64,000 bases of DNA from Chloroflexota bacterium (GCA_019873735.1 JAIOAQ010000008.1:16651-80650), one strand, 5' to 3'; shown: positions 23,150-42,350, counted from the first letter of the stretch. Notes: generated by a model not told the origin, from the sequence alone. Made by a program: numbers and translations.

Positions 23150-26035
23150 CTATTTGCCTTTTTCTCTGGTTTGCGTTTCAGGTGGAGGGGCATAGGGAAG
23201 AATCTCCACATGGCTGGCTCCCAGCACCTGACGCAGTTCCGCCAGCGCTGTCTGGATCATGCTCTCTGGGTCGGTTTTGCTGCGGATCTTGGTGGTGATT
23301 TCTGAAACGGTGCGTTCACGCAGGGCGCGTCGGGTTGTTTCCTCAAACAGTCGGGCGTTTTCAAGTGCCAGCGCTAACCGGTCGGAGATGGAAGACAAAA
23401 GGGCAATTTCATCATCATCCCAGCGGCGATTGGGATCTTGCGAACGAATGTTCAAGACGCCGATGACTTGCTCGCGCAGACGGATGGGAATTGCCAAAGC
23501 CGGCGTTTCCTCGTTTTCTTTGGCTTTTGAGCCTTTGGGATAAATGGTTACAAACTTGCCACTTGCAAGCGCTTGCATGATTTCTGCCCGCTGAACCGTC
23601 TGGTTGACAGGCCTGCCGCCGCCGATGGTTTTGTGGTAGCCCAGATATTTTCTGGTTGCAAGACTCTTCCAGGATTGAGCCAGATACTGCCTTTGCAGTG
23701 CCTGGGCTTCCAAAAGGGCGCGCTGTAAATCGGTAACCAGCCTCGAATTGTGGATGGCAATGGCAATTTGATCGGCAAGGATGCTGAGGGTTTTCAGGTT
23801 TTCTTCTGAAAAAGCATTTGCTTCTGTGCTTTGAACATCCAAAACGCCGATGATTTCATTGCCGATTTGCAAGGGCAGAGCGGCCTCTGAACGGGTTTCT
23901 GGCAAGTCGGGGTTATCAAAATAGACAGCATCTTGTCCAACGTCAAGGGCAATGCGGGCTTTTCCGGTTTCGGCAACGTTGCCAACAATGCCCACCTGTC
24001 CTATTTTCAATTTGTGCTGCCGTTCCAACATACGTTTTCCGCCGGGGCTGTTAGCGGCTTGCAACACAGCATACTCGCGGTTTTCGTCAATCAAGAAGAT
24101 GCCAACGTGATAGAAAGAGAATTTTTCGCTGACCAGTGATGTGACCAGTGGGAGCAAGGCTTCTGTTTGTTGCTGCGATGCAGCCACCTTTGCGACTTCG
24201 CTGACCAACTCTAACTCCCGCGCCCGCTCCGCGCTCCTGTGCATGGCCTGCTCCAGTTCTGCCGTGCGTTCGGCGACGCGCTGTTCCAGGCCAGACAGCA
24301 TTTGGCGGATTTGGGCTGTCAGTTCATTGAATGTGGTCGCCAGGTAGCCAACTTCATCATTGCTGGCAACTTTGGCCTGCGTTTCCAGATTCCCGACCTT
24401 GAATTGCTCAACGGTGTGCGTCAGGTCCAGGATTGGGCTGGTCAGTTGACGCGCAACATGGATTGCCATGAAAGAGACGACTGCAGTGATAAGAACGCCA
24501 AGCAGGTTAATGGTGCGAACCCGCTGCTGCACAAGCGCAATTGTCTCTGCTTTTGCCTGATAGACGATTGCTCTCCAGGGCAGGTTGTCAACTGCTTCTC
24601 TCTTGTTGGGAGAAAAGATTGGGGCTGCACTCAATATGCTATCGCCTTGCTCCAGGTTGACCTCAACATAACTTTCCTTTTCAAGATTTTCCAGCGCCTG
24701 AACGAGTTCTGGCGGTGACAGGTGAATTCCATCCAGGGCTAAATGCTTCGTTGGATTGCCCAAGAAGACGTATTCTGCCCTGCCCGTTTCACCAATCGGT
24801 TGGGAAAGCAGTTGTTGCAGTTCGGCAATAGTATAGCCAGTCTGCAATACGCCCATAATATCCCCTGTTGCCCGATCGCGGATGGGGACGGCAATGCGGA
24901 AAATGTACATTCCGATGCTTTCGTCATATTCGGGAGTACCGATAAAGATGTCTCCTGCCCCGTTATTGTAGGCCTTTTGCCACCATTCCTCGTCTGCCTG
25001 GTAATAGTCAGAAGTTCGATTTGTTGCCGCTACCAGGCCGCCGAGGACATCGGTGACGATCATTTCGACATGACCGGGGAAAGACTGTTGGAAGTTCCTC
25101 AACTGTGATGAAGCGATATTGTATAAGCGCCCGTTGACAAGAGGCTGTTCGTTATTGTTAGCCGCATCTGCCTGACGCCATATCGCATCAAAGCGATTGA
25201 TTTTCTCCATCTCCTTTTGCAAATCGGGGTCGTGCGACCGATTTGCGCGCGCAACTTGCCATTGAATATCTGCATTTGTGCTGAGCGCCTGAATGGCGTC
25301 TATTTGCTGGGCCAGGATGCTTCCCATAGCCTGTCCGCGTGACTCGGCTATAGGCTGCAAACTCTTGCCGGCGTTTTCGGTCAAGACGTTTGTCAGCGTC
25401 AGGGATGTGATCTGACCAAAGGCAATGGAAATCACGGCTGCAATGCTTACATACGCGATTAAAATTTTGTTGACGAATTGTAGTTTTCCAAACTGCGTAA
25501 TGATCAGAAAGAAAAAGACGAGAATTGTAAGCAGAATCAGGCCTGCACTGAAGCGTTCAACAATGGGGACAAGGATGCGCTCGTAAGGCACCAGGATATC
25601 TATCAGGCCAATGGCCAGGCTGGCCAATATTCCGGCAAAGATGACGCGCACCAGCGAACGTTGAGGCAGGGTTTGAATGCCAATCAGGACTGTCAGCAGT
25701 AAAGTGGTGATTCCTAATGCGCTTCCAATGTTGGCGATCAAGGCGGCTACACTTAACGCAGCGTAGAATACAATGCCAATCAGGGTCCAGGCCGCCAGGG
25801 CGTGATCGCCTTTCTGATTTCTACGAATGACCCAAAAATTTGCAGCGATGACGATGGTGAACGTTGCGATCAGCAGGAAATACCGCCAGTCTCTTTCTGA
25901 GAAGAGAAGGTATATGTAGAACGCTATTGGAATGACCGCCAGAGCCGACGTTAATAGTGCCAGGCGGTGAGTGTTTTGCTGCTGTGTGCTGGCTTGCTCA
26001 TCTTCATACGTACTTAGATTGACCGTTTGTGTCAT
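23150..26035 (-). CDS. Output-less membrane sensor paralog 1 (polytopic N-terminus + Cache-like + HAMP + signalling helix + GAF + mini-GAF + conserved tail)
   Basis: 961 aa. About 6 N-terminal TM segments, then an extracytoplasmic Cache-like segment and a further TM. HAMP is followed by LEQRVAERTAELE. The GAF carries FYHVGIFLID ... NPDLPETRSEAALPL ... GVLDVQST. I see no kinase, cyclase, MCP or phosphatase motif. Confidence 0.8.
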   Translation of the reverse strand: MTQTVNLSTYEDEQASTQQQNTHRLALLTSALAVIPIAFYIYLLFSERDWRYFLLIATFTIVIAANFWVIRRNQKGDHALAAWTLIGIVFYAALSVAALIANIGSALGITTLLLTVLIGIQTLPQRSLVRVIFAGILASLAIGLIDILVPYERILVPIVERFSAGLILLTILVFFFLIITQFGKLQFVNKILIAYVSIAAVISIAFGQITSLTLTNVLTENAGKSLQPIAESRGQAMGSILAQQIDAIQALSTNADIQWQVARANRSHDPDLQKEMEKINRFDAIWRQADAANNNEQPLVNGRLYNIASSQLRNFQQSFPGHVEMIVTDVLGGLVAATNRTSDYYQADEEWWQKAYNNGAGDIFIGTPEYDESIGMYIFRIAVPIRDRATGDIMGVLQTGYTIAELQQLLSQPIGETGRAEYVFLGNPTKHLALDGIHLSPPELVQALENLEKESYVEVNLEQGDSILSAAPIFSPNKREAVDNLPWRAIVYQAKAETIALVQQRVRTINLLGVLITAVVSFMAIHVARQLTSPILDLTHTVEQFKVGNLETQAKVASNDEVGYLATTFNELTAQIRQMLSGLEQRVAERTAELEQAMHRSAERARELELVSEVAKVAASQQQTEALLPLVTSLVSEKFSFYHVGIFLIDENREYAVLQAANSPGGKRMLERQHKLKIGQVGIVGNVAETGKARIALDVGQDAVYFDNPDLPETRSEAALPLQIGNEIIGVLDVQSTEANAFSEENLKTLSILADQIAIAIHNSRLVTDLQRALLEAQALQRQYLAQSWKSLATRKYLGYHKTIGGGRPVNQTVQRAEIMQALASGKFVTIYPKGSKAKENEETPALAIPIRLREQVIGVLNIRSQDPNRRWDDDEIALLSSISDRLALALENARLFEETTRRALRERTVSEITTKIRSKTDPESMIQTALAELRQVLGASHVEILPYAPPPETQTREKGK

Positions 26036-26071
26036 TGTTTATTACCTCGTGCCAGACTGCAAAGACAAACG

Positions 26072-28231
26072 TTACTCCGACGGGGGCGCAGGCTGTAATT
26101 GGATTAATACTTCTGAATCTTGAACGATTTTGCTGATTTCTTCGGCTGCAGTTTGCAAGATGCTGTCCATTTGCATTGAACTGCCCAGTTTGGCTGTCAG
26201 GTCGGCAATAATTCGGTCCTGCTTTGAGCGGCGGGTTGTCTCATCCAAGAGGCGTGCATTTTCAATGGCCAGAGCAACGCGGTCTGCAACGGCCTGAGCC
26301 ACATCTACTTCATCCTGATCCCAGCGGCGTCTGCCGGGGATGCGCACGTTAAGGACACCGATAGACTCGCCTCGCAGTTTCAACGGAATCGCCAGCACGG
26401 CGGACCCATCGGCTTCAATTTCTTGAACTGGTGCCCCGGCATGCAGGGCTTTTTGAATTGCCGGTAGTTTGAGCGGGGCTTCCAGCGGCGTTGCACCGGT
26501 GATGGAGTAATGATAGCCAAGTTGCTTGCTTGTCTTGAGTACCCGGCTCCATTTTTCCTGCAAGTACTGTTGTTGCAGGGCCTGTGCTTCATTCAGGGCT
26601 CGATTTGTTTCTTCAAAGAGGCGGGCGTTTTCGATTGCGATGGCCACCTGGTCGGCCAGAATCTCCAGCGTCTCGATATCGTCTTGTGAGAAGGCGTTTG
26701 GTCTTGTGCTTTGGACATCTAGGGCGCCGATGATTCGGTTGCCTATTTGAAGAGGCAAGGCAATTTCTGAACGCGTGTCAGGCAAATCGGGGTTGTTGAA
26801 GAAGACGGCATCCTCGCCAACGTCGAGAGCGATACGGCTCTTACCTGAACCGGTTACAAAACCGACAATGCCTGTCTGACCAACTTTGAGGCGGTGCCCG
26901 CGTGCCAGCATCCTTTGCCCACCGATGCTGTTGGAGGCACTGAGAATGGCATTTTCTCCGCTGGGGTCGAGGAGGAAAATACCAACATGGTAGTGCCCCA
27001 AGGCTTCACTGATTTGCCTGGTGATTTCCAGCAGCAGGGGCTTGAGTTCGCGAATCGAGGAAATTGCCCGGTTGACATCAGCAATGGCTTTGAGCCGAAT
27101 GGCTTTCTCGGCGTTATACTGATTTGCGGCTTCAAGTTCTGCTGTGCGCTCGGCAACCCGTTGTTCGAGAGAACCGACCAATTCTTGAATTTGATCGGTC
27201 ATTGTGTTGAATGTCCTGCCGAGGTTGCCTAACTCATCTTCAGATGTTATCTCGGCGCGGATGGCGAAATTCCCTGCCTGGATTGCCTGGACGGCGGCCT
27301 GTAGTTTGCCCATGGGCGTGATAATCCGCCGGAGCGTGAATGCTATGGCCGATGAGGCTTGCCAAACAACGAGGACCAATGCGACTAAAAGACCCAGCGT
27401 GAGCAGGCCAAAAGCGCGCAGGGCCTCGCTAACGGCCTGTTCCACGATGACATACCAGGACGTCCCGGGTACTGTTGCAGCAGCAGCGATGACGTAGTTT
27501 TGCTGGATGCTGCGGAAGATGTTGAGCGCCGATCTCTCCATGTCTGCAGGGGTTGAACCGGTCACCTGAGAGTACGATGTGCCACTGCGGACAACTTGCA
27601 AATCGCGATAGGCCAGGATTTGTCCGTTGTTATCCACGATGTAAGCCTGTCCCGTCTTGCCGATGCGCAAACTGGTCACCGGGTTCCATAGGGCGGTAAA
27701 GTCCGTGCGGACAAGCAAGGTGCCGGCAAAGTTTTCGGAACTATCTTTGACCGCCACTGCAAGGTCAACGAATGGTACGCCAAACAGGCTGTAGTCCACT
27801 GGCCCAAGGTACATCTGGCCCTGTTTTACGGTTTCCAGCCAGGGCTGACTAGTGACCACAGGCGCAGATTCTCCCACGCGGCGTCGCTGGGCAATCACAT
27901 TTCCTTGGGGGGTGATAAGCAGGGCCTCAAAAATGATGGGCTGACGCTCTAACAGGAAGCGTAAGACCTGCTCTTTGTCATTGGTGAATGTGAGTGCCGT
28001 GCTGGTTGCGTGCAGGTCGGCTTCGATAACACTGAGTGACTTTGTGAAAGCCAGCGCGGCAGCGACGGCTTCGCCGTTAAGTTCTCTGGTAACACCTCGA
28101 AGCGATGAATTCAGGCCAACGACGATTTCCGTCAAGAGGCCCGCAATGGCTATCAGGCTGAGCAGTGTAACGCGCAGGGACAATTGTCTCCTGAGTGTTC
28201 CACGATTTCTTTGAGAGGATGATCTATTCAT
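26072..28231 (-). CDS. Output-less membrane sensor paralog 2 (TM - double-Cache-like - TM - HAMP - signalling helix - GAF - mini-GAF - tail)
   Basis: 719 aa. Two TM segments bracket a ~250-aa periplasmic domain. Cytoplasmic motifs: HAMP, SLEQRVAERTAELE, HYHVGIFLLD, DVGEDAVFFNNPDLPDTRSEIALPL, GALDVQST, ENARLFEE. Confidence 0.8.
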   Translation of the reverse strand: MNRSSSQRNRGTLRRQLSLRVTLLSLIAIAGLLTEIVVGLNSSLRGVTRELNGEAVAAALAFTKSLSVIEADLHATSTALTFTNDKEQVLRFLLERQPIIFEALLITPQGNVIAQRRRVGESAPVVTSQPWLETVKQGQMYLGPVDYSLFGVPFVDLAVAVKDSSENFAGTLLVRTDFTALWNPVTSLRIGKTGQAYIVDNNGQILAYRDLQVVRSGTSYSQVTGSTPADMERSALNIFRSIQQNYVIAAAATVPGTSWYVIVEQAVSEALRAFGLLTLGLLVALVLVVWQASSAIAFTLRRIITPMGKLQAAVQAIQAGNFAIRAEITSEDELGNLGRTFNTMTDQIQELVGSLEQRVAERTAELEAANQYNAEKAIRLKAIADVNRAISSIRELKPLLLEITRQISEALGHYHVGIFLLDPSGENAILSASNSIGGQRMLARGHRLKVGQTGIVGFVTGSGKSRIALDVGEDAVFFNNPDLPDTRSEIALPLQIGNRIIGALDVQSTRPNAFSQDDIETLEILADQVAIAIENARLFEETNRALNEAQALQQQYLQEKWSRVLKTSKQLGYHYSITGATPLEAPLKLPAIQKALHAGAPVQEIEADGSAVLAIPLKLRGESIGVLNVRIPGRRRWDQDEVDVAQAVADRVALAIENARLLDETTRRSKQDRIIADLTAKLGSSMQMDSILQTAAEEISKIVQDSEVLIQLQPAPPSE

Positions 28232-28283
28232 TCCAGGTGCTCCAAAAGAGTTTGTACCGCGGCGGCTTAAGATACTTTGCAGG

Positions 28284-29477
28284 TTACTTGAGCGTCTCTA
28301 CGAAGGTCCAGGCGCCATCTACAACTTTCATGCCGCCAATGGCTGAGGGAGAAATATCACCCTGAGGGTCAAAATGCCAGGTCCCAAAAATGCCGCTGTA
28401 TTCACCCAAATTTTGCATCGAGGCAAAGACGGCTTCACGGGTAGGCTGCTCGGCGCGTCCAATAGCATAAAGAAGTACGTTAACAGCCTCATATATGGCA
28501 CCATCGTAAGAAGACGGGGTTTTTCCGTATTCGTTCTGATAACTTCTCACGAAGTCTCTGGCGGCAGGAGTATCCAGGTTGGCGGGAGGAATGGCCACCA
28601 CCGTGCCGTAGATATTCTCTAGTTGTTCTTTCTCTAACAGGGCAAAGATATCGTCTACCGCTATCCCATCTGGCCCCATTAATGGGATGGTGGCATTGGC
28701 CTGGCGGATGGCCCGAACAATATATTCGGCATTTGAGCCAACGCTGCCGGCCAGAAAGATGATATCAGGGCTGGCGTCCAGTGCTTTTGTAACCAGGGCC
28801 TCTGCTGTGGCAGTGGGCAGATCTCCTTCGGTCGTGAACCCTGATTTGCCAACGATCCCAAGACCAATGTCTTTGGCGGTGATTTCAAACACGCCGGCTA
28901 CGCCTTTGCCGTATACGTCCTCGCCGTAGATGATGTAAACTTTTTGGTAGCCCATTTTTTGAATCCAGCGCGCGGCAGCCGCGCCTTGTACCTCGTCGCT
29001 GGCTACCGTCCGGAAGTAAGTACGTTGGCCGGTGGGGTAGTAAATCCCCGGTTCGCCCAGTTCGTAGCCTGGCTTGGTCAGCCCCGGCCAGGTATTGCTG
29101 CCTGAAATTGTGGTCACCGAGGCGCGGTTTAAGATGGGGATGATTTCTTTGGCTGTGCGGCTGGAATCTGGACCAACCCAACCGACAACGCTTGGGTCTT
29201 GGGCTACTTTTTCTGCATTTTGGATGACAAGCGGTGTAGAAATACTCTCGCTATTGGGCTCTGTTTCGCTCAGGACCATCAACTCTACATTGTACGGACC
29301 GGCTTTTCCGTTCGCCTTCTTTATAGCCATTTCAACTGCATGCAAACTGTCTTGTCCGTAGGTGGTTCCCAGCGGCACGCTGAACGCGATTTTCACATTG
29401 CCGGAGGGCTTATTAACACAGCCTGATATCAGCAGGCCGATAATAATGGTAATGACGAGCAGTTTTTTTATGGTCAT
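28284..29477 (-). CDS. Lipoprotein, type-1 periplasmic solute-binding protein (LivJ / branched-chain amino-acid-binding-like)
   Basis: 397 aa. Signal peptide with lipobox LISGC and a Peripla_BP_6-like pattern. No ABC permease or ATPase gene occurs anywhere in the window. Confidence 0.75.
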   Translation of the reverse strand: MTIKKLLVITIIIGLLISGCVNKPSGNVKIAFSVPLGTTYGQDSLHAVEMAIKKANGKAGPYNVELMVLSETEPNSESISTPLVIQNAEKVAQDPSVVGWVGPDSSRTAKEIIPILNRASVTTISGSNTWPGLTKPGYELGEPGIYYPTGQRTYFRTVASDEVQGAAAARWIQKMGYQKVYIIYGEDVYGKGVAGVFEITAKDIGLGIVGKSGFTTEGDLPTATAEALVTKALDASPDIIFLAGSVGSNAEYIVRAIRQANATIPLMGPDGIAVDDIFALLEKEQLENIYGTVVAIPPANLDTPAARDFVRSYQNEYGKTPSSYDGAIYEAVNVLLYAIGRAEQPTREAVFASMQNLGEYSGIFGTWHFDPQGDISPSAIGGMKVVDGAWTFVETLK

Positions 29478-29508
29478 TTTTTTCTCCTAACTCAGATAAT
29501 GTAAGGTG

Positions 29509-31746
29509 CTATGATTCGTCCTGCCGTAATTGAATGACTACTTCTGAGCCTGGTATGGCATGCCCCAGTTCTTCAGCGGCGGTCTGCAGGATGTTTTGGA
29601 AATTCACAGTAGCGCCGATACGGGCAGAAATATCGCTGATGATTTTTTCTTTTTGAGCCCGTTTTTCCGATTCTTCAAACAGGCGGGCCGTCTCCAGGGC
29701 TGCGCCTACGCGTTCGGCCACGGCTTGAAGTAGAGCAATTTCGTTTTGTGACCATCTTCGTTCAGGGTTGCCCGACTGTACGTGAATGGTCGCCAGTGTT
29801 TTACCGCGAATCCTTACCGGAACGGCCACGGCCGGCTTTCGCCCGGCGTTCTCGTTTGCTGCCGCTACTGCAATGGTACCGGTCTGGATGGCGCGGCGAA
29901 TCTCCTCATGCTCGACTGGCCGGGTAATGGCTTTGGTCTCCTCGGTGAGACTATGATAAAAACCAATCACGGCGCGTCGGGCGGTGACAGATTGCCACCT
30001 TTCGGCAACGTACTGGCGGTTGAGCGTTTCAATCTCGGCCAGGGCTTGACGTGTTTCATCATACAGACGCGCGTTCTCAATCGCGATGGCGATCTGGTCG
30101 GCCAGAATCTGCAAGATACTGGCGTCTTCGCTCTTGAAGGCGTTGGGGGTGGTGCTTTGGATGTCCAGCGCGCCGATGATTCGGCCGCGCGCTACCAGCG
30201 GCAGCGCCATTTCGGAGCGGGTATCTGGGAGGTCGGGATTGTTGAAGAAAACGGCATCCTCTCCCACGTCCAGGGCGATGCGGGCCTTTCCTACGCCGGT
30301 GACGTAGCCGACGATGCCTTCCTCGCCAATCCGCAGGCGGTGACCGCGGGCCAGCATACGCTTTCCGCCTTCGCTGTTTGCGGCGCGCAACCTGGCAAAG
30401 GTGTTTGTTTCGTCGTTCAAAAAGATGCCTGCATGGTAGAAGCCAAATCGATTAGAAACAACTTCTGTGATTAGGGGCAAAAGTGTTTCAAGATTCTGCT
30501 CGCTGGCAATAATGCGGGCTACGTCACTGATGGTCTGGAGTTGATCGGCGCGCTGATTGCTCTGGATGGTCGTTTTCTCGAGTTCGGCTGTGCGTTCAGC
30601 AACGCGTTGCTCCAGAGAGCCGACCAGGCTGCGCAACTGCTGTGTCATGCTGTTGAAGGTGTTTGCCAGTGTGCCGATTTCGTCTTGGGATTGGATTGAG
30701 ACCTCTGTTTGCAGGTTTCCTTTCCCAATTTCCAGGGCAGCCTTTGTCAGGTCGCGCAAGGGGCGGCTGATTTGCCGCGCCAGGCTGAAAGAGAATGCGC
30801 CGCCCGTGATCACAGCCAGAAAGGCGGCAATAACCAGAATGGTCTGTGCCCTTTGGGTGTTTGTTGTGACACTGGCGAGTTGTTCGCTTGCATATTCGGT
30901 CCCGCTTGCAGCGATATCCAGCGCCAGGGGCTGAATGGCTTCGGCTGCAACGGTGTATTGTTGTGTATGTTGATTGATTTCAGCATCAATGCGCGCCAAC
31001 TCTTTAAGGGCTGCTTCATAACGGTCTAAAGAGGACGCGATGTTCTGAGACTCGATTTCGGGTCTGTTGGCCAGGGCAGCGCGGATTTGGTCAAGCGCAA
31101 GTTTTGTGGCCTCAAGGTCCGCCTGCCTGCCGTAGACTCTGTATTTTCTTTCACTGACCTGCAGTTGCAGCGCAAGGGATAGTAATTCGGGGTCGGCCTG
31201 GGCGCCGATTTGGCTTAGCAGCAGTTGTTCGGCGTCTTCCAGTTCTCCAACAACGCCTTTTCCCTCTGTGCCCCGTTCCTTGATCAAGTTGGTAACCGCA
31301 TTGAATTCACTGCGATACATTGCAAGCGCGGCTGAGAGGTCTATCAATTTTGGATTGATGCGGGCGAACAGAGGGCTTTCTTGTCCAGCCGTCAAATTGC
31401 CCAGTTTGTCAATGGTCTGGCGAATATCGGTGATGGCATTGCCATGCGGAATGAGATAGTTGTTGACGGCGTTTTCGTAACCCTCTTCCTGCCAGTGGAG
31501 CAGAAAAGCCTGTTCCTGACGGCGCGCGGCAATTAAGTCGTTTTGAATCCGATTGCCCAGGTCGCGGATTTGCAGGCCTTCTACCAGGGCTTCATTGACC
31601 GATTTCTGGATTGTCAGGAAACTGAAGTAGTTGACCAGGGCCAGGGCAATGACAAAGAAGATGATTAACCCAAAGCCAAGCAACAACCGTGTATTGATGG
31701 GCCGATCACGGAATTTCAACCTGGGATTTTGACGACTGGGACTCAT
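29509..31746 (-). CDS. Output-less membrane sensor paralog 3 (TM - helical 4HB/CHASE3-like - TM - HAMP - signalling helix - GAF - mini-GAF - tail)
   Basis: 745 aa. A long all-helical periplasmic region lies between two TM segments. Cytoplasmic motifs: HAMP (DEIGTLANTFNSM), SLEQRVAERTAELE, FYHAGIFLND, DVGEDAVFFNNPDLPDTRSEMALPL. Confidence 0.8.
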   Translation of the reverse strand: MSPSRQNPRLKFRDRPINTRLLLGFGLIIFFVIALALVNYFSFLTIQKSVNEALVEGLQIRDLGNRIQNDLIAARRQEQAFLLHWQEEGYENAVNNYLIPHGNAITDIRQTIDKLGNLTAGQESPLFARINPKLIDLSAALAMYRSEFNAVTNLIKERGTEGKGVVGELEDAEQLLLSQIGAQADPELLSLALQLQVSERKYRVYGRQADLEATKLALDQIRAALANRPEIESQNIASSLDRYEAALKELARIDAEINQHTQQYTVAAEAIQPLALDIAASGTEYASEQLASVTTNTQRAQTILVIAAFLAVITGGAFSFSLARQISRPLRDLTKAALEIGKGNLQTEVSIQSQDEIGTLANTFNSMTQQLRSLVGSLEQRVAERTAELEKTTIQSNQRADQLQTISDVARIIASEQNLETLLPLITEVVSNRFGFYHAGIFLNDETNTFARLRAANSEGGKRMLARGHRLRIGEEGIVGYVTGVGKARIALDVGEDAVFFNNPDLPDTRSEMALPLVARGRIIGALDIQSTTPNAFKSEDASILQILADQIAIAIENARLYDETRQALAEIETLNRQYVAERWQSVTARRAVIGFYHSLTEETKAITRPVEHEEIRRAIQTGTIAVAAANENAGRKPAVAVPVRIRGKTLATIHVQSGNPERRWSQNEIALLQAVAERVGAALETARLFEESEKRAQKEKIISDISARIGATVNFQNILQTAAEELGHAIPGSEVVIQLRQDES

Positions 31747-31766
31747 GGAGTGTCCTCTCAGACAAA

Positions 31767-32783: not shown

Positions 32784-32848
32784 TATCTTTTACTCCTCTG
32801 TGATCAGGTTAAGAAAGAATGGTTATCGAGGACATTTTCTCTGCTGGA

Positions 32849-34777: not shown

Positions 34778-34780
34778 CTC

Positions 34781-36838
34781 TTATCCCTTTCCATTGTCGG
34801 CTTTTGAGCCTGTAGCGTTGGATTCTGGTAACGTCTTTTTGCCCGCCGATTCTGCTGCCTTGTCCTGGGGCCGCAAACCAAGTTGAACAAACGTGCGAAC
34901 CGCGCCCAGCGCCTTTCCCAACTCGCGAGCCGTTTGTTGCAAGACCTTTTCGGTGCTGGTTGATTTTCGTATCTCGCTTGCAATCAGGTTCATTTGATGT
35001 TCGCGCTCAGCCAATCGTTGTTGTTCTTCAATCAATCGGGCGTTTTCAACGGCCAAACCGACCTGGTTGGCAATTTCCTGGGCAATGCTTTGTTCGCGCT
35101 CATCCCAACCCGCATCTGCCCCGACCCTTTGAATGCTGATCTTCCCGATCTTTTGGCCGCGCAATCGGATGGGAACTTCGATTTGCGCTTGCCCATTCCC
35201 GGATATTTCTGCCGTCTCCTCGGTCAGCGCCTGGATGCCAAGGGGGGTGTACACGTAGGCATGTCTTTTACGGCTTGTGTACGCTTGCCAGGCAGAGCGG
35301 ACACTTTCCATACTGGTGCGTTGGAGTTGTTGAAGCGCTTGCTGGCTTTCGGCATACAAGCGGGCATTTTCGATGGCCAATGCGATCTGATCTGCTAACG
35401 TTTGCAATACCATGACGTCGTCCTGGCTGAATGCCCGCATTTCTGTGGACTGAATATCAAGGACGCCGATGAGTTTGCCGCGTACGGACAGCGGCAGGGC
35501 CATTTCGGAACGGGTGTTGGGGAGGTCAGGATTGTTGAAAAAGACGGCATCCTCTCCAACGTCCAGCGCGATGCGTGGACGGTTGGTGGCTGCTACCATC
35601 CCAACAATGCCCTGGGAGCCAATACGCAACTGGTGGCCGCGCTCTAACATTTTTTGTCCGCCGGTGGATGATGCTGCCTGCAAAACCACATGCTGACCGG
35701 CCTGGTCGGTAATGAAAATTCCGGCGTGATAGAAACCGAACCGCTCCGAAATCAGATTCACCGCCCGGTTAAGCAACTCGTCCACCTGCCGGATGGCAGC
35801 CGCTTCGCGCGCCACCTGAGCAGCGGCTTGCAATTGAGCAGTTTTCCGCTCCAAATCGCGCGTACGCTTTTGGACTTCCTCATCCAGGTTCTTTTGCAGG
35901 TTTTCCAGGCGTTCGAGCATGATGTTGAATTGGATGGTGGCCAGGCCGATTTCATCGGTGCCGATAATATCGGCACGCTGGTGGATTTCTCCGCTTTCAA
36001 TTCGCGTCATGACATTTACCAGGTGGGCCACCGGCCGATAGATCATGTGGGAGACGATAATTGCAAGAATGCTGCTCACAATCACTGCAATTACGGCAAC
36101 CCAAATCAGTTGAACGCGCAAAGTGTACAGGCTAATGGCTTTGCCGTTCAAGATATCCACTGCAACCTGGTAAGCGCGCGGGGCTGTGGTTAAAAGCGCT
36201 ATTCCAACAGAGGATATGACCAATAAGATCAGCCGTTCCTGGAGTCTGGTTCCGCTCAGGCCGCGTTTTTGAAGCTCTGGCGAACGGGGGAGCAAAACCT
36301 GCCGCGCATTGGTCAGTCCGTATTCAATCAGAAGCACGCAACTGATGATCAGCATGGAGGCCGAAAGAAAGCCGCCAATGATCACATGGATGGCTTGCTC
36401 TACCGTAGCCCCTCCGATGTAATACATGTAAGCAGCAGCCGGAAGAATGGTCTCCAGGGTTGCAATCACCAGGGCGGCAATGCCGAATTTCCATGGATAA
36501 CTGGTAACCTCTCTCCAGGCCTGCACTTCCAGTTCGGGATTCTCGACCCCGCTTTTTCCCTTGCTCCAGGAATACAAACGCTTTCGGGCAGCGCGGGAGG
36601 CTTCATACATGTAAAGCAGGAGAAGGATATTGGCTCCCACAACAAAGGCGAAAACCGCTCCAGTCAATTGTTGGGTTTGTTTGGGCGTGAATTCTACGTT
36701 GACAAGGATGTAGTAGATTCCCAGCCCGGCAGCCCCAAAGGAGAGCAATTGGGCCAGAAACTGAATCACAAGCAGGTATGAACCACCCAGCGAACTTAAG
36801 AGTGTATCCAAAAAAGCAGGAACATATCGTTTGTTCAT
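34781..36838 (-). CDS. Output-less membrane sensor paralog 5 (6-TM N-terminus - HAMP - signalling helix - GAF - mini-GAF - tail)
   Basis: 685 aa. Six hydrophobic segments, then HAMP (DEIGLATIQFNIM), FYHAGIFITD, DVGEDAVFFNNPDLPNTRSEMALPL, GVLDIQST. Confidence 0.8.
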   Translation of the reverse strand: MNKRYVPAFLDTLLSSLGGSYLLVIQFLAQLLSFGAAGLGIYYILVNVEFTPKQTQQLTGAVFAFVVGANILLLLYMYEASRAARKRLYSWSKGKSGVENPELEVQAWREVTSYPWKFGIAALVIATLETILPAAAYMYYIGGATVEQAIHVIIGGFLSASMLIISCVLLIEYGLTNARQVLLPRSPELQKRGLSGTRLQERLILLVISSVGIALLTTAPRAYQVAVDILNGKAISLYTLRVQLIWVAVIAVIVSSILAIIVSHMIYRPVAHLVNVMTRIESGEIHQRADIIGTDEIGLATIQFNIMLERLENLQKNLDEEVQKRTRDLERKTAQLQAAAQVAREAAAIRQVDELLNRAVNLISERFGFYHAGIFITDQAGQHVVLQAASSTGGQKMLERGHQLRIGSQGIVGMVAATNRPRIALDVGEDAVFFNNPDLPNTRSEMALPLSVRGKLIGVLDIQSTEMRAFSQDDVMVLQTLADQIALAIENARLYAESQQALQQLQRTSMESVRSAWQAYTSRKRHAYVYTPLGIQALTEETAEISGNGQAQIEVPIRLRGQKIGKISIQRVGADAGWDEREQSIAQEIANQVGLAVENARLIEEQQRLAEREHQMNLIASEIRKSTSTEKVLQQTARELGKALGAVRTFVQLGLRPQDKAAESAGKKTLPESNATGSKADNGKG

Positions 36839-36842
36839 TGCA

Positions 36843-38426
36843 TCATTCCAACTTCAGTTCGATAATACCCTTGGTCGCATTGAGCGCCTGCCCAAGTTCT
36901 TTGATAGCCGTTTGCAGGATGGCGTCAATGGTTACCGCCGACCAGACCTTACTGGTGATGTCAGCAGTGGTGTGTTCTTGTATGGCGGTCTGTTGAGTCT
37001 CTTCAAGCAGACGGGCATTCTCAAGCGCCAAGGCGGCTTGGGCAGCCACCGCCTCAATCACGCTGATTTCCTCCGGACTTAGTTCGCCTTCGCTTTCAAT
37101 GACAATGTTGCCAATGGGGGTTTCGCGCAACGCCAGCGGTATGCTTATGCTCTGGCCGCTTTGCTCTGTTTCGGCCATTCCTACGTCAACCTTTATCCCC
37201 TTGCGTTTTTCGATCTGGCTCCAACTGCTGCTTAGATACTGCCGGTATACGCTATTCAACTCGTTCAGGTTTTGCTGGGCTTCCTGGTATAAGCGCGCAT
37301 TCTCAAGACCAATTGCCACCTGGCTGGCCATACCTTGCAGGGTTTCGATTTCTTGCGGCCCAAAGGCTGCTTCTTCTGTGGACTGTACGTCCAACGCACC
37401 CAGCACGCGGTCGCCGACAATGAGTGGAAGAGCAATCTCTGACCGTGTTTCAGGAAGCAGCGGGTTGTTGAAGCGAACCGCTTCTTTGCCCACATCCAAC
37501 GCCACCCGCGCCTCGCGCGTGCTGATAGCGGCTCCGACCATGCTCTGGCCGCTCACCTCCAGACGGTGACGGTTTTGGAGCATGATTTTACCGGCCGCCC
37601 CGGTCGCGCTTCTTAACTCAGCCCACTGGCCACTTTGGTCTATTAAGAACAAGCCGGCATAATAGTAACCAAATCGCTCGGTAATCAGGTTGACAATGTG
37701 CTCTATCAGTTCTTCCTGGTTGAGGCTTGCGTTTGCAGCGCGCCCGATTTCAATTACAGCCCGCAACTGTTCCCTGCTTCGGTTGGCCTGAATTTCCAAT
37801 TCTTCTTTAAGCGCAGTCAATTCCCTGTTAGCAGCGGCTTGCGCTTGCTCGCTTTGCCGGGAACGTCGCAGGGCGCTATTCATCCGGCCGATAAGCACAT
37901 AAAGGAACAGAGCAACCGCCAGAAAGATGATCGCCTGGGTAAACGTATCCTGGAGTGTGACCGGCTCCAAATTTGAGATCAGCCGCCCGGCGCTTTCCTG
38001 GTAACCGATGTAAATGATTGCCAGCACGGTTAGCAGACCAAAGATCAGCGCGCCGCTTTGCCCCAGCAATAAGCCGGCAAGCACCAACATGGCCGCATAG
38101 GCGATGATGGCCTCGTCGCGAATCCCTCCCCGCATAGCGATTGACGTAACGGCGGCAAAGATGGTCAGCAGCATTAGAACGCGGCCGGGAAGGAGAATAT
38201 TGAAATATGCCAGCACCAGCGTAATGGCCGTCAAAATACTTGCAACGATCAGCACGCCTCGATTACGGGGGTCAACCACAAGATTGAACAGCAAAATTGC
38301 TGCCAATGCCAACAGCACAATCCCCAAAAGCACAAGGGTGAGCCGGCGCTCGGCCTCGAGATCGGCCTCTGACTTTTCTGATCGGGCAGGCGGGAAGATT
38401 CTTGCCAGAATTTGCGGGAATTTCAT
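36843..38426 (-). CDS. Output-less membrane sensor paralog 6 (polytopic N-terminus - coiled coil - GAF - mini-GAF - tail; no HAMP seen)
   Basis: 527 aa. About 5-6 TM segments are joined by a coiled-coil linker directly to the family GAF (YYYAGLFLID, NPLLPETRSEIALPL, GALDVQST). Confidence 0.75.
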   Translation of the reverse strand: MKFPQILARIFPPARSEKSEADLEAERRLTLVLLGIVLLALAAILLFNLVVDPRNRGVLIVASILTAITLVLAYFNILLPGRVLMLLTIFAAVTSIAMRGGIRDEAIIAYAAMLVLAGLLLGQSGALIFGLLTVLAIIYIGYQESAGRLISNLEPVTLQDTFTQAIIFLAVALFLYVLIGRMNSALRRSRQSEQAQAAANRELTALKEELEIQANRSREQLRAVIEIGRAANASLNQEELIEHIVNLITERFGYYYAGLFLIDQSGQWAELRSATGAAGKIMLQNRHRLEVSGQSMVGAAISTREARVALDVGKEAVRFNNPLLPETRSEIALPLIVGDRVLGALDVQSTEEAAFGPQEIETLQGMASQVAIGLENARLYQEAQQNLNELNSVYRQYLSSSWSQIEKRKGIKVDVGMAETEQSGQSISIPLALRETPIGNIVIESEGELSPEEISVIEAVAAQAALALENARLLEETQQTAIQEHTTADITSKVWSAVTIDAILQTAIKELGQALNATKGIIELKLE

Positions 38427-38432
38427 TCCGAA

Positions 38433-41400
38433 TTATCTCCTCTCGGCATCCGAATCTTTACCGTTAGACTTCTCGGACGGTTCAGGGCTAACCCCTAGCC
38501 TGACCTGCATTCTCCGGGCATTGACCACCCGAGACAGTTCGCTGGCGGTCGTCGCGAGAATCGTTTGCATATCAGTCGAGCGGCGAATCTTGCTGGTTAT
38601 TTCGTAAATCAGGCGCTCGCGTTCTGCCTGCCGACGAATCTGATCCAGCAGGCGGGCATTGGCAATAATCGCCGCCAGGCTGCCGCCCAGGGTTCCCAAC
38701 AGTTCTTCATCGTTTTCGGTGTAGGCGTTAACCTGCTCGCTCTCAACGTTCAGCACACCCAGCACCTCGTTCCGATAAAGGAGCGGGACGGCAAGTTCAG
38801 AACGCGTGTTGGGACTGACTTGAATATAGCGCGGATCGTTTTCGATATTGTCCACCCGCAAGGGTTTACGATGTGCGGCCACCCAGCCAGTAATCCCGGT
38901 GCCGATCGGCACACTTACGTTGGCAACATCCTCTTCCGAATAGCCGATGTAGGCTTTGATTTCGAGCATTTGCTTCTCTTTGTTGAGCAGCATGATGGCT
39001 ACCCGGTCGCCGCCCAGGGTGACCTGCAAACCCTGCGCCGCACTGTAAAGCGCCTCTTCCAATGTGGTTCCAGAGGCCGCCGCAGTGGTGACATGATGAA
39101 GCAGACGGTGCTGCGACAGGTGCTCCTGCGTTTCAGCAAATAATTCGGTGTTGATGACCGCCACTGCCAGCTGGTCGGCCAGAATCTGCAGCGTTTGCAG
39201 GTTGCTCTCGCTGAACGCGTAAGGCAGGTTGCTTTGCACATCCAGTGCTCCCAGAATGCGCTCACCGACCTTGAGAGGGATGGCGGCCTCCGAACGCGTA
39301 TCTGGTAGCAGGGGATTGGCAAAATAGGTGACGTCTTTGGTGGTGTCGTTGACGACCAGGGGTTCACCGCGCCCGGTCACGTAGCCGATGACCGATTTAG
39401 ACCCAACGCCCAGTTTATGACCCATGCGTTTCATCTGTGCCCCGGCATCTCCGGTAGCCTCTCGCACGGTGGCGTATTCTCCGCTTGGATCAATCAGAAA
39501 AACCGCCGCGTGATAGAAGCCAAATCGGTCGCGAATCAAGTTGATGGCGGTATGCAGCAATTCGTCCAGGTTGAGCGATCGGCTGATATCGCGGGCAATT
39601 TCGGCTGCTGTTTGCAATTGAATACTTTGCGTGCGGCTCTCTTCCAGCAGGCGAATATTATGAATGGCTCCTGCCACCTGTGCTGCCACTGCATTCAAGA
39701 AACGCAGGTCGTTTTCATCGAACTGATTTTCGCGTCGGTTATCTTGCAGGATTAACGCGCCAATCGCTTCGCCTCTTGCCAGAAGCGGCGTCCCCAGCCA
39801 GGATTTGGCAGGCTGCCCAATTGTCTTGGCTCCCAGCGCCGCGAGGCGCTTCTCAACGCTCTCCACCAGCATGAGCGGTTGTCTGGTGCGAATCAGGATG
39901 GAGGTGAGCCCCTCGCCCAGAGGGAAGGGTTCCAGCGTTGTGATTTGCCCGTCTTCGTACAGGTAAGGAACAGAGATGCTTTCTTTCTGCCTGTCGTACA
40001 GCGCGATCATGAAACTGTAATCGCCAACGGTCTGACGAATCTGCTCGTGCAGCGTGGTATAGAAAGTCTGCAAATCACTGGCCACCATCACCGACTGGCT
40101 GATGGCTGCCAGGGCCTCCATTTCTGCCAGGCGGCGTTCGATGGAACGCGAAGCATTGATCTTTTCCAGCGAAGTGGCGACAAAGCCGGCCAGGTTGGCG
40201 TAGGGTTGCACATTGGCCGCCGTGAGGCTTCCCTTTTGTGTCGAACCAAGGACAATCAGGGCGGTCAATTGTTCGTTGACGGTGATGGGCAAAAAGGCCG
40301 CCATCTGGCAACCCAACTGGCGGGCATAGCGTATCAGCGTAGTAGGAAGGTTGGACGGTTTGGTCAGGTCGGCCAGCGTCAACCCGGATGCGAGATGAGG
40401 CGCCAGGTCGACAGGAGAAAGATCCAGTTTACGAGATGAAAACTCCACCATTTGTATCCCGGCTGCATCCGTTACAGAGATTGGCTCAAAGGCTTTGCCG
40501 CTGGCGACCAGCACGGCGGAAATGTAAGGAGCGTCAGATAAGACCTGACCGACGCTCTGCAAGACACTTTCTTCGGTTTGCGCTTCGGCAATCTGACGGC
40601 TGGCTCGATACAGGCGTTCCAATTCATTCAGGTTGACCTCGGTGGAGGCGGCCAGTTCAATGTTCTGGATGGCGCTGGCAATCTGGTTTGCCAGGGTTTG
40701 CAGGGTGACAATGGTGGCATCGTCGAAGGCTTCAGGTTCTGTGCTTTGTACATCCAGTGCGCCCAGCACAAGGCTGCCGGCGGCAATCGGAATGCCCACC
40801 TCGGCGCGTGTATCGGGCAGGAGCGGGTTCTTAAAGTGCATGGGGTCTTCGCCAACATCTGAAGCCACGCGCGGTTTGTTGTTCTCGGTTACCCAACCGA
40901 TAATAGACTGCGAACCGACTGCCAGGCTGTGACCGCGCTCGCGCATGGCCTCTGCCGCCGGCCCGTAGACGGCCCGCAGCGTCGCGGTTTTGCCGGCCCG
41001 GTCGAGGAGGAAGACGCCGGCATGGTAGAAGCCAAAACGTTCAACAATCAACTTCACGGTTTTGTTCAGCAGGTCGTCCAGATTGATTGCAGAAGTGATG
41101 TCCTGGGCGACTTCTGCGGCTGTACGAATTTGGCTGGTGCGTTCTTCCACGCGCGCTTCCAGCGATTGATAAAGGGTGCTTAATTCGTCAGCCATGTGGT
41201 TGAACGACCAGGCCAACAAACCGAGTTCGTCATTGCGGCGGCTGGTCAGCCGTTCTTCAAAGTTTCCCTCCGCAAAATGGCGTGTGGTCTCCACCATGTT
41301 AAGCAGAGGCTTGACCAACTGATTCGTACCGACCCACACCACGCCTGCCATGCCTACAATCGTCAATGCAACTAGAATGGCCATGAAAGGCGCCAGGCTG

Positions 41401-42350
41401 TTCAGTTGTTGAAAGACGCGCTCTTCGGGAATCTCAACCACAAGCCCTGTATTGAGGAAGCCCGCCCAGCGGCCGACGGCAATGACCGCTTCGCCATCTG
41501 GGTTGACAAACATGATCAACTCGTCGCCTTTTCCGGCTTGCAGTTTCGAGGCAGATAGCAAGTCGCCTTGTTGAGCAGATGGCTCAAATGCGGCCAGTTC
41601 TTTGCGGTAAGGGTTGATCCCAATGAAATGATTATCAGCGGTGACAAAATACGGCTTGAAACTTCGGTTGAAGGTTGTCAGGTTGTTTAAGATGCTTTGG
41701 ACGTTCTTCTGCTCCGATATGCCTATCAAAGCCCCGTTGCGTCCCCTGACATTGCCAAATTGATTGTATTGTTCAATGGTGATGAAGACAATCTGATCAG
41801 GATAAAGCGGTTCAAAGTTATAGACGGCCAACGTCTCATCATGGGTGGCCTGAATCAGGTCGTAGAATGGCGAGCCGGATATATCTACGCCTTCCCAGGC
41901 GGGGTTGCTTGCAATATGAATGACACCGTCAGCGCGCACAAAGAGGAAGTTGTTAAAGACAGGAGTCCCTTCCTGGCGGTTGACCTTTTCAAAGATGTCA
42001 ACCACGTTGCTTCGCTCTAGTTTGAATTGCAGGGTACCACGGCTCACCGGCAGAGTCTTTTCCAGTGCGTCGGTAAATTCCTTCATGCGAACGATACGAT
42101 TCAGACGTACCGCTTTTGCACGTACCGAGCCTTGCACTTGAGTCATCTGGGATTCCATTGCAGTCTGAATCTGCGCCGAAATCTGGTTTAGCAGCAGGGC
42201 ACGTGCTCGCAGGTAGGCGCTGGCGCCCATGATTAATAGGGGAATGATCGAGACAGCCACCAGCGTGAGGGCCATGGTGCGCGCTAACCGCCCTCGGAAT
42301 TGGGGCCTCTGGTCTTTTTTCGGTTCAGGCGGGACAGGTGAGATTGTCAT
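38433..42350 (-). CDS. Output-less membrane sensor paralog 7 (TM - double-Cache-like - TM - HAMP - five GAF-like domains - tail)
   Basis: The ORF track gives 38433..42461. I place the start at Met38 (42350, MTISPVPPEPKK), 7 nt after the upstream RR stop, because the longer form would overlap that gene by 104 nt. Two family GAFs are present (FYHAGVFLLD and FYHAAVFLID; NPLLPDTRAE/SE), plus three other GAF-like repeats. Confidence 0.8.
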   Translation of the reverse strand: MTISPVPPEPKKDQRPQFRGRLARTMALTLVAVSIIPLLIMGASAYLRARALLLNQISAQIQTAMESQMTQVQGSVRAKAVRLNRIVRMKEFTDALEKTLPVSRGTLQFKLERSNVVDIFEKVNRQEGTPVFNNFLFVRADGVIHIASNPAWEGVDISGSPFYDLIQATHDETLAVYNFEPLYPDQIVFITIEQYNQFGNVRGRNGALIGISEQKNVQSILNNLTTFNRSFKPYFVTADNHFIGINPYRKELAAFEPSAQQGDLLSASKLQAGKGDELIMFVNPDGEAVIAVGRWAGFLNTGLVVEIPEERVFQQLNSLAPFMAILVALTIVGMAGVVWVGTNQLVKPLLNMVETTRHFAEGNFEERLTSRRNDELGLLAWSFNHMADELSTLYQSLEARVEERTSQIRTAAEVAQDITSAINLDDLLNKTVKLIVERFGFYHAGVFLLDRAGKTATLRAVYGPAAEAMRERGHSLAVGSQSIIGWVTENNKPRVASDVGEDPMHFKNPLLPDTRAEVGIPIAAGSLVLGALDVQSTEPEAFDDATIVTLQTLANQIASAIQNIELAASTEVNLNELERLYRASRQIAEAQTEESVLQSVGQVLSDAPYISAVLVASGKAFEPISVTDAAGIQMVEFSSRKLDLSPVDLAPHLASGLTLADLTKPSNLPTTLIRYARQLGCQMAAFLPITVNEQLTALIVLGSTQKGSLTAANVQPYANLAGFVATSLEKINASRSIERRLAEMEALAAISQSVMVASDLQTFYTTLHEQIRQTVGDYSFMIALYDRQKESISVPYLYEDGQITTLEPFPLGEGLTSILIRTRQPLMLVESVEKRLAALGAKTIGQPAKSWLGTPLLARGEAIGALILQDNRRENQFDENDLRFLNAVAAQVAGAIHNIRLLEESRTQSIQLQTAAEIARDISRSLNLDELLHTAINLIRDRFGFYHAAVFLIDPSGEYATVREATGDAGAQMKRMGHKLGVGSKSVIGYVTGRGEPLVVNDTTKDVTYFANPLLPDTRSEAAIPLKVGERILGALDVQSNLPYAFSESNLQTLQILADQLAVAVINTELFAETQEHLSQHRLLHHVTTAAASGTTLEEALYSAAQGLQVTLGGDRVAIMLLNKEKQMLEIKAYIGYSEEDVANVSVPIGTGITGWVAAHRKPLRVDNIENDPRYIQVSPNTRSELAVPLLYRNEVLGVLNVESEQVNAYTENDEELLGTLGGSLAAIIANARLLDQIRRQAERERLIYEITSKIRRSTDMQTILATTASELSRVVNARRMQVRLGVSPEPSEKSNGKDSDAERR

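Follow-up and report, generated by a model that had tools for sequence, protein, structure and literature searches.

Introduction

The stressosome, made up of RsbR paralogs, RsbS and RsbT, joins variable sensor domains to one conserved non-enzymatic C-terminal domain and controls a single kinase, and LuxP-LuxQ and TorT-TorS are sensor kinases that depend on a binding protein. NarX and NarQ are kinases with the order sensor, transmembrane (TM) segment, HAMP, signalling helix (S-helix), GAF-like domain, dimerization and histidine phosphotransfer domain (DHp) and catalytic and ATP-binding domain (CA), of which the GAF-like domain is thought to be a pure transmitter (PMC8199190). Partner proteins typically engage ParA/MinD ATPases by means of an N-terminus that is disordered and positively charged, and the cargo of these ATPases can be told from the genes around them, among which are chemotaxis clusters (ParC/PpfA; PMC10241942). 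Here, we describe a gene cluster in 64,000 nt of DNA from a Chloroflexota bacterium (GCA_019873735.1 JAIOAQ010000008.1:16651-80650; this whole stretch is called the window, and positions are counted from its first letter), which hundreds of Anaerolineales species retain and which looks like an undescribed and widespread many-receptors-to-one-kinase system built from GAF modules. The cluster contains seven genes for transmembrane receptors, G1 to G7, at 23150-42350, whose products lack any recognizable output domain, and we give a probability of about 0.6 to the reading that they are functional receptors of one pathway, which converges on a shared soluble kinase. A search of the full-text literature, with most subscription journals outside its coverage, found no description of the gene cluster or of the receptor family.

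The locus resembles the MCP-CheW-CheA arrays (MCP, methyl-accepting chemotaxis protein) in its tandem TM receptors, which combine Cache, four-helix-bundle (4HB) or polytopic inputs with HAMP and a conserved non-enzymatic cytoplasmic module, as well as in its one soluble kinase, its single-domain receivers (REC) and the presence of a ParA/MinD-family ATPase gene in the cluster (PMC10241942). Unlike in chemoreceptors, a tandem GAF serves as transmitter, the kinase belongs to the HisKA-type hybrids and the likely response regulator is a pyridoxal-phosphate (PLP) enzyme. Among the Pfam and NCBIfam profiles used to assign protein domains, the MCPsignal hairpin (PF00015) was not found by Pfam in G1-G7, and an NCBIfam match to CtpM was limited to the HAMP region and far under its cut-off. 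No CheA, CheW, CheR or CheB was seen among the window genes scanned for domains, which lie between 13833 and 48039, the rest of the window not having been scanned for Che genes.

With the NarX/NarQ kinases the receptors share the order sensor-TM-HAMP-S-helix-GAF (PMC8199190), and sub-threshold NCBIfam matches to NarQ/NarX cover their HAMP and S-helix region; unlike in those kinases, DHp and CA are missing from the receptors and are found on a separate soluble protein, following a GAF of the same subfamily. The two GAF folds on a long connecting helix recall PDE2/5/6, CyaB2 and the GAF-PHY unit of phytochromes, from which the receptors differ by the lack of the NKFDE motif, the bilin-binding Cys and a covalent effector, by a reduced second GAF (GAF-B) and by the truncated start of a third GAF at their end. 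More loosely, the locus is also similar to the stressosome, where paralogs with varied sensors and a conserved non-enzymatic part control a single kinase, but no STAS match was found in G1-G7 with Pfam, the receptors are membrane-bound and the kinase is of another type. Finally, orphan solute-binding lipoproteins beside a membrane sensor, with no transporter genes, are reminiscent of LuxP-LuxQ and TorT-TorS, although the sensors here carry no kinase domain and their pairing with the binding proteins is suggested by conserved adjacency. The receptors are placed outside the MCP, histidine-kinase, cyclic-nucleotide (cNMP)-GAF and bilin-GAF families because the defining feature of each is absent from them.

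Seven receptors with different sensory inputs

A first-pass annotation of this DNA had proposed seven tandem paralogs with different input modules. Seven intact open reading frames (ORFs) do occupy the region, but they are not strictly contiguous, since two genes for solute-binding proteins (28284-29477 and 31767-32783) are interleaved with them. All genes of the cluster given below, from the first receiver to the transporter, are encoded on the minus strand. The topologies proposed for the inputs agree with a hydropathy scan, and at least six kinds of input module are present. G1 (23150-26035), which adjoins the ParA-like gene, starts with six TM segments, followed by a dCache-like loop of about 300 residues (dCache_1 at 32-37 bits, under the cut-off of 45) and a further TM segment, whereas G2 (26072-28231), the reference paralog, has the order TM, dCache_1, TM, with a loop that scores 72.7 bits and thus over the curated cut-off. 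In G3 (29509-31746) the two TM segments enclose a helical loop with only weak Pfam matches to HBM and CHASE3, and in G4 (32849-34777) a single-Cache-like loop, for which Cache_3-Cache_2 reaches 28.1 bits against a cut-off of 27.7 and dCache_2 stays sub-threshold. Both G5 (34781-36838) and G6 (36843-38426) have six TM segments and input regions with no Pfam match. G7 (38433-42350) carries a 278-residue loop between two TM segments, and here the label of double-Cache-like did not hold, as the loop has no Pfam match and no similarity to the dCache of G2. The ORF of G7 is open to 42461, but the upstream receiver gene ends at 42358, so the start is probably Met38, at 42350, as had been assumed.

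Downstream of the last TM segment, HAMP (PF00672) was detected in G1-G5 and G7 with 32-61 bits (cut-off 25). In G6, which had been described as lacking this domain, Pfam indeed finds none, and its six TM segments are followed by a helix. The receptors then continue with a GAF of a particular type (GAF-A), GAF-B and a C-terminal stub in G1 to G6, the GAF-B being short in G6 and the stub having a longer unstructured end in G5, while G7 has the series GAF-A, GAF, GAF-A, complete GAF and stub. Clear orthologues in other genomes were found only for the G5-, G6- and G7-like receptors; the other types turn over.

The first of the interleaved genes (28284-29477), directly upstream of G2, encodes an orphan LivJ-like lipoprotein (Peripla_BP_6, 122 bits), and a LivJ-like gene of 397 aa also precedes the closest listed relative of G2 from another genome (P0006 in locus L087, 53% identity); the pairing of a LivJ-like gene with a dCache receptor is thus conserved in both. 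The second (31767-32783), inside the array, encodes an orphan Bmp/PnrA-like lipoprotein (Pfam Bmp, 115 bits) with the lipobox LLLTAC, and no ABC permease or ATPase gene is adjacent to it.

Lipoprotein solute-binding genes of several kinds (LivJ-like, Bmp, NMT1/SsuA-like and PstS-like) recur in other receptor arrays devoid of transporter genes, and multihaem cytochromes lie inside the arrays of two genomes. These embedded genes were seen in loci L052 (527-1489), L069 (3151-4221), L046 (7050-7883), L015 (4016-5230), L004 (8686-9933), L086 (4473-5453) and L087 (8757-9950), and their products, binding proteins and cytochromes alike, probably act as co-sensors. In three loci, receptor genes are split in two ORFs, one for the sensor part and one, in another frame, for the HAMP/GAF part (L072, 5581-6360; L083, 3405-4427 and 5422-7170; L085, 4195-6460), which would be either frameshift errors in the assembly of metagenome-assembled genomes (MAGs) or occasional pseudogenes.

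A tandem-GAF transmitter

The cytoplasmic core, whose quoted motifs were all recovered in the translations of the paralogs, consists of HAMP (except in G6), signalling helix, GAF-A, a long helix, the reduced GAF-B and a C-terminal stub of about 50 residues. Its anatomy was followed in an AlphaFold2 (AF2) model of the G2 core (m973483c0fdc2; residues 294-719, from an alignment of 62 sequences, mean predicted local distance difference test, pLDDT, of 84.6). The HAMP of G2 (residues 299-350; 27182-27337) scores 54 bits in Pfam and is followed by the signalling helix (27053-27181), which contains LEQRVAERTAELE and is modelled as one continuous helix (40-98 of the model). GAF-A (26618-27052; Pfam GAF, 87 bits) is the most constrained domain. 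The next segment (26249-26617) comprises the connecting helix and GAF-B, modelled as a helix (223-274), five strands with one internal helix, and a final helix (346-390); the QYL..W motif, taken for a linker in the first-pass annotation, sits within the 50-residue helix that follows GAF-A. In the stub (26075-26248) the long helix of GAF-B runs on, a second helix follows and a strand-like end is left unplaced. Across the paralogs, G1-G6 reach 72-94 bits with GAF profiles (PF01590/PF13185), and the four domains of G7 together reach 226 bits.

Two GAF folds on a long helix are therefore seen in the model, as in the tandem GAFs of PDE and CyaB proteins, and the best Foldseek matches of the G2 core are precisely tandem-GAF structures (PDE5A, PDE2A, CyaB2 and phytochrome GAF-PHY, over 350-450 aligned columns). 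In the best match by sequence in the PDB, 8w26_A (SyB-Cph1 GAF-PHY), GAF-B and the stub align to the C-terminal half of one domain and the first helix of the next. A profile of GAF-B plus stub, run against 1.84 billion representatives, gave 87182 matches at E<=1e-3, headed by giant poly-GAF proteins that are matched 6-21 times each. From this it follows that the tail is a further GAF truncated after its start. Both stretches that had been set apart as a short module and a tail are thus present, but the first proved to be the C-terminal half of the reduced GAF-B and the second this truncated start. The same profile was rejected as a counter of the family, since with 6-21 matched stretches per top protein it describes a generic GAF-GAF junction. 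The poly-GAF proteins (P0241-P0390) have 1100-3950 aa, and some of them (such as P0246, P0252 and P0262) end in a receptor-like GAF-B plus stub. It was also considered whether short module and tail form a circularly permuted GAF, which was not supported (though a dimer might conceivably adopt such a form): in the AF2 model, GAF-B has an N-terminal helix and hairpin of its own, and no place is found for the final strand-like segment.

In G7, two of the four GAF matches are of the GAF-A type (162 and 168 bits), a complete GAF before the stub replaces the QYL..W helix and reduced GAF-B, and the stub match lies at most 40 aa from the stop codon. Three rare receptors of other loci have a second unit of GAF-B plus stub (L064, 7026-9980; L057, 7236-9980; L049, 2498-4669), and in them the first stub continues in cis into the further GAF-B.

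The core had been called invariant and conserved nearly to the residue, which is overstated, as only GAF-A is under strong constraint. Over 324 distinct receptors from 85 loci, 41 of the 145 columns of GAF-A are at least 90% identical; the short module has five such columns out of 56, the tail four out of 52 and HAMP none out of 57. The aligned cores of G1-G6 share only 36-49% pairwise identity.

Beyond Cache/HBM, HAMP and GAF, no domain that could serve as an output was found in G1-G7 by Pfam or NCBIfam. When databases were queried with the G2 core, at least 7849 proteins matched at E<=1e-10, and in the 120 best of them, whose architecture was described, only sensor, HAMP and GAF were seen, with no kinase or cyclase output; these proteins are annotated as GAF-, HAMP- or cache-domain-containing, and the organisms named are nearly all Anaerolineales. 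Neither HisKA nor HATPase_c was matched at E<0.01 in G1-G7, and none was found in the 120 best homologues. The exact sequence of G2 is not on record, the closest protein being P0001, 100% identical over the core and encoded on a contig of 5.7 kb.

A GAF subfamily shared with a soluble kinase

The motifs of the core GAF are not generic. Scores against the GAF-A profile are bimodal, with values of at least 120 bits on one side and of at most about 60 on the other, and NP.LP.T[RK][SA]E occurs in 212 of 331 GAF-A domains versus 4 of 400 other GAF matches. The subfamily is defined by YH.G.FL ... NP.LP.TRSE.ALPL ... LD.QS, and its ligand or partner is worth finding.

Two genes downstream of the array lies the gene (17542-22368) of a hybrid histidine kinase of 1608 aa, in which neither a TM segment nor an extracytoplasmic sensor was found by hydropathy and Pfam. 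It consists of a basic N-terminal peptide, a disordered linker, an orphan half-GAF, four GAFs, PAS, a GAF-A-type domain, HisKA, HATPase_c and two REC domains. The GAF-A-type domain (19045-19485), directly before HisKA, carries the motif and scores 156 bits with the profile of the receptor GAF-A. This arrangement is general: in 53 kinases, the GAF next to DHp is always of the GAF-A type (mean 150 bits, minimum 121), as opposed to a mean of 28 and a maximum of 102 for the other GAFs. Kinase and receptor GAF-A have 27 conserved columns that are identical between them, NP.L..T..E.A.PL and D.QS included.

The genes of this cluster are found together elsewhere. Six receptor homologues, selected solely because they lie on long metagenomic contigs (loci L001-L003 and L085-L087; 46-53% identity to G2), are without exception part of arrays located two or three genes from a ParA gene, a GAF/PAS hybrid kinase and a receiver-fused PLP enzyme (PALP-REC), and an EamA transporter gene occupies the same position in these loci wherever they reach that far. 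A wider sample came from relatives of the ParA-like protein, sought in one genome per species, which gave at least 527 stretches; the figures on gene order refer to the best 80, which are 66-80% identical and come nearly all from MAGs of Anaerolineales/Anaerolineae. Wherever these loci have sequence beyond ParA, the next gene is without exception a kinase with the conserved N-terminus, and PALP-REC comes after the kinase wherever the contig extends to it. Where the sequence suffices, the 10 kb upstream of ParA encode four to six stub-bearing receptors. Hence, the order of array, ParA, kinase, PALP-REC and EamA is conserved across Anaerolineales. In the window, the gaps from the first receiver to EamA measure 3-77 nt, and the ParA-like gene overlaps that of the kinase by 32 nt.

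A proposed pathway of many receptors and one kinase

Domain anatomy, the age of the paralogs, the lack of an output domain, the GAF-A subfamily and the conserved gene order are shown by the data; for the interactions and the direction of signal flow, we infer the following scheme. Each receptor would sense a different extracytoplasmic or membrane cue, some of them probably through the adjacent orphan solute-binding lipoprotein, and the signal would pass via HAMP and the signalling helix into the common transmitter of GAF-A, long helix, reduced GAF-B and truncated GAF stub. Lacking a catalytic domain, the receptors must exert their output by contact with another protein, and the most likely partner would be the TM-less, GAF-rich hybrid kinase. 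This kinase may in turn phosphorylate the receiver-fused PLP enzyme, which is ThrC-like, and perhaps also the two single-domain receivers REC1 and REC2, while the ParA/Soj-like ATPase would probably position or partition the assembly of kinase and receptors, engaging the kinase by its basic, disordered N-terminus. The reasons for placing this kinase at the point of convergence are that the receptors lack catalysis and the kinase a membrane sensor, that both carry the same GAF subfamily and that their genes are co-inherited with operon-like packing. The earlier idea of one conserved transmitter fed by many inputs fits these data, the motifs being specific to the subfamily and the best homologues being free of output domains.

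Several points weigh against a shared kinase as the target. It is synteny alone that links the receptors to this protein. Kinase and receptor GAF-A show no genome-specific co-variation, as their identity is 0.404 within a genome and 0.403 between genomes, and a direct GAF-A to GAF-A contact thus gains no support, although near-invariant interfaces would not show any either. No specific kinship of the orphan half-GAF of the kinase with the short module of the receptors was shown: the half-GAF resembles it no more than the C-terminal halves of other GAFs do, it is the best match in only 3 of 52 kinases, and the receptor short-module profile scores the last GAF of the kinase over it. With five GAFs and a PAS, the kinase could sense independently; as a hybrid with two REC domains, and with no Hpt seen in the cluster, its phosphoryl route to PALP-REC is unclear; and the upstream end of the array is visible in this window only, arrays of other genomes running past the 10-kb flanks.

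Wastewater sludge, sediments and groundwater all harbour abundant Anaerolineales. If the convergence on one kinase is true, an entire order of bacteria relies on a many-receptors-to-one-kinase pathway made from non-chemotaxis parts, where tandem-GAF transmitters take the place of MCP hairpins, an orphan ParA is added and the metabolic output of a PLP enzyme replaces the flagellar one. It would also assign a role to the thousands of proteins whose annotation goes no further than "GAF domain-containing protein", and offer a natural test bed for the passing of signals between GAFs of separate polypeptides. With the receptor genes, the adjoining binding proteins and the kinase now delimited, the system is open to direct study by heterologous expression.

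Other explanations for the conserved features

The constraint on GAF-A admits a different cause, namely a single intracellular small molecule that would be bound by the near-invariant pocket of every receptor and of the kinase alike. What each receptor senses outside would thereby be combined with a metabolic or feedback signal common to all of them, which might be the product or substrate of the ThrC-like enzyme. GAF-A is conserved far beyond the other parts of the receptors, and the 27 columns identical in receptors and kinase, together with the absent genome-specific co-variation, would fit a universal ligand. The motif of G2, NPDLPDTRSE (26765-26794), lies in the loop before the fifth strand and at the start of that strand in the AF2 model, a segment between the fourth and fifth strands, where cNMP-binding GAFs carry NKFDE. 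Moreover, the closest single-domain folds to the GAF-A model are ligand-binding GAFs of known structure, fRMsr, PtsP and Nlh2, with target-normalised TM-scores of 0.77-0.82. Yet no ligand can be assigned; GAF-A has no close solved relative, its best match by sequence having E = 3e-5, and the NPxLPxTRSE loop has the lowest AF2 confidence inside GAF-A (block means 71-79). A regular expression for NKX(n)FX3DE found no instance in the GAF-A domains of the seven window receptors, which contain no Cys either; over 395 GAF-A domains the highest frequency of Cys in any column is 0.01, which bears out the earlier statement that neither the cNMP motif nor a conserved bilin-binding Cys is present. Some GAFs, such as the GAF-like domain of NarX/NarQ, are besides thought to be pure transmitters (PMC8199190). 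A common ligand is a tentative explanation that we find possible but on balance improbable; it can coexist with convergence on a shared kinase and competes with it only as the reason for the conservation of GAF-A.

How a receptor might dock on the kinase is a separate matter. The orphan half-GAF of the kinase (21964-22140) has two strands and a helix, with the sequence WATLQ..D...W..EE.LLVKQVADQLSLALENARLF and the consensus WATLQv.DE...W..deqLLvkQV.DQLSLALENArLFQEt, and stands out as one of the best conserved parts of the kinase N-terminus; AF2 models a hairpin (77-83/89-95) and a helix (105-150), and no further strands before the first complete GAF. The receptor stub, with its two helices and strand-like end, matches helix 1 and strand 1 of a GAF, and the half-GAF provides two strands and the last helix, the two fragments being complementary. 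Receptor stub and half-GAF could conceivably assemble in trans into one GAF-like domain, such that any receptor would dock on the shared kinase. Both fragments are conserved and incomplete alone, the stub of G7 follows a complete GAF, and in the rare receptors with two GAF-B units the stub continues in cis, all of which is compatible with such docking, although we judge it unlikely. If it were true, the cluster would encode a chemoreceptor-like array devoid of CheW and CheA, with its own ParA partitioning and with an output made up of an exporter and a PLP enzyme under receiver control.

The position of the ParA-like gene raises another alternative, in which the receptors target the ATPase directly and control its cycling or localisation, for instance in division or in positioning within filaments, and the kinase is merely another client. 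The gene (22337-23122) encodes an orphan ParA/Soj-like ATPase of 261 aa, whose 3' end overlaps the start of the kinase gene. It has a deviant Walker A, KGGVAKT, at residues 11-17 (KGGxxK[ST] form), its closest solved structures are Soj/ParA (E = 4e-43), and all its matches to NCBIfam ParA families fall under the curated equivalog cut-offs. Compared across the best 80 loci, this protein is unusually conserved, at the 66-80% identity given above, and its gene always stands between the last receptor and the kinase. For 65 of 81 other loci, the receptor adjacent to ParA finds its best window match in G1, and a distinct variant of the stub, ..NDPQ.MI.TA..EL...L...R.EIIPQ, marks this receptor in the window as well as in three further genomes. 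However, the basic, disordered N-terminus belongs to the kinase and not to the receptors, whose N-termini are embedded in the membrane. The basic peptide of the kinase (22309-22368; consensus MpkKk.idKRL.kLF.di.pE in 84 sequences) resembles the N-termini with which ParB-type proteins activate ParA. In an AF2 model (pLDDT 81), a short helix (4-12) and a disordered stretch (20-72) precede the hairpin and helix, and a variable Pro/Lys-rich linker separates the two strongly conserved elements of the kinase N-terminus, which thus appears to carry the sequence features of a ParA partner, being basic and disordered. Direct control of ParA by the receptors, with the kinase as a further client, seems distinctly unlikely.

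It is very improbable, in turn, that G1-G7 are remnants of sensor kinases or cyclases, truncated or in decay after the loss of their output domains. Such an origin is suggested by the order sensor-TM-HAMP-S-helix-GAF, which equals the N-terminal two thirds of a NarX/NarQ-type kinase (PMC8199190), and by the truncated GAF in which the receptors end. Against it, the ORFs are intact, the proportion of nonsynonymous differences (pN, 0.35-0.48 in the aligned cores) is well under that of synonymous ones (pS, 0.68-0.81, saturated), and the same architecture with the same stub is conserved in hundreds of receptors from 80 species, which already refutes decay. For 370 of 376 matches of the stub profile, the distance to the stop codon is at most 40 residues, and since no output domain was found either in these genes or in their 120 best homologues, the receptors are not decaying kinases.

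With regard to the age of the paralogs, saturated synonymous sites imply that the duplications are old, and with pN so much lower they have been held by purifying selection, in agreement with the first-pass annotation. Identical peptides do occur: LEQRVAERTAELE is shared by G1-G3 (24251-24289, 27131-27169 and 30577-30615), and DVGEDAVFFNNPDLPDTRSE by G2 and G3. As had been noticed, they are written with different synonymous codons, only 5-6 of 13 being identical in the first and 9 of 20 in the second, and over the aligned cores the same codon is used at 29-53% of identical residues. Nucleotide identity between the paralog cores is 46-56%, so no long identical DNA is implied. Receptor GAF-A domains are no more alike within a genome (identity 0.546) than between genomes (0.554), from which it follows that there has been no gene conversion, as also proposed before. 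The idea that the core is shared owing to recent duplication or gene conversion and not to constraint, which identical peptides of 13-20 residues in several paralogs might suggest, is already refuted by these differing codons, by the saturated pS and by paralogs that diverge as much within a genome as receptors of different genomes do, and its probability is practically negligible.

Flanking genes and minor observations

Downstream of the kinase, the gene at 15796-17472 encodes a ThrC-like PLP enzyme that has a Zn ribbon at its N-terminus and a receiver fused to its C-terminus (PALP 216 bits, Response_reg 72 bits), and for which threonine synthases are the closest solved structures. It is followed by the EamA-family transporter (14768-15718; EamA 96 bits), the last conserved gene of the cluster. 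The pair suggests that the output of the pathway is the phosphorylation-controlled synthesis and export of an amino-acid-derived compound. At the other end, the run starts with REC1 (42840-43220), a single-domain receiver of 126 aa (Response_reg 102 bits) located 5 nt before REC2 (42358-42834), which has 158 aa (76 bits) and ends 7 nt before the start of G7. Overall, the genes scanned between 13833 and 48039 encode REC proteins, the receptors, solute-binding proteins, ParA, the HisKA kinase, PALP-REC and EamA, together with an M23 peptidase, DegV and FtsH.

Scans of the cluster for promoters and terminators stayed at chance level, with no excess of terminators. The best sigma-70-like promoter match (43697-43668) falls just upstream of a tRNA gene (43585-43656, minus strand; Rfam 73 bits), situated between a gene for an M23/LysM peptidase (43702-45177) and REC1, and probably serves that tRNA gene, after which there is a terminator-like hairpin (43546-43531). 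From this arrangement, the promoter of the receptor operon should lie at about 43530 to 43221. A third single-domain receiver of 137 aa (45552-45965), identified only by its phmmer similarity to REC1 and REC2, is encoded beyond the peptidase gene. Lastly, four of the entries compared (L010, L013, P0113 and P0232) are labelled as Bacteroidota, Syntrophothermus, Candidatus Angelobacter or Chitinophagaceae despite a cluster of the Anaerolineales type, and they are probably mis-binned contigs.

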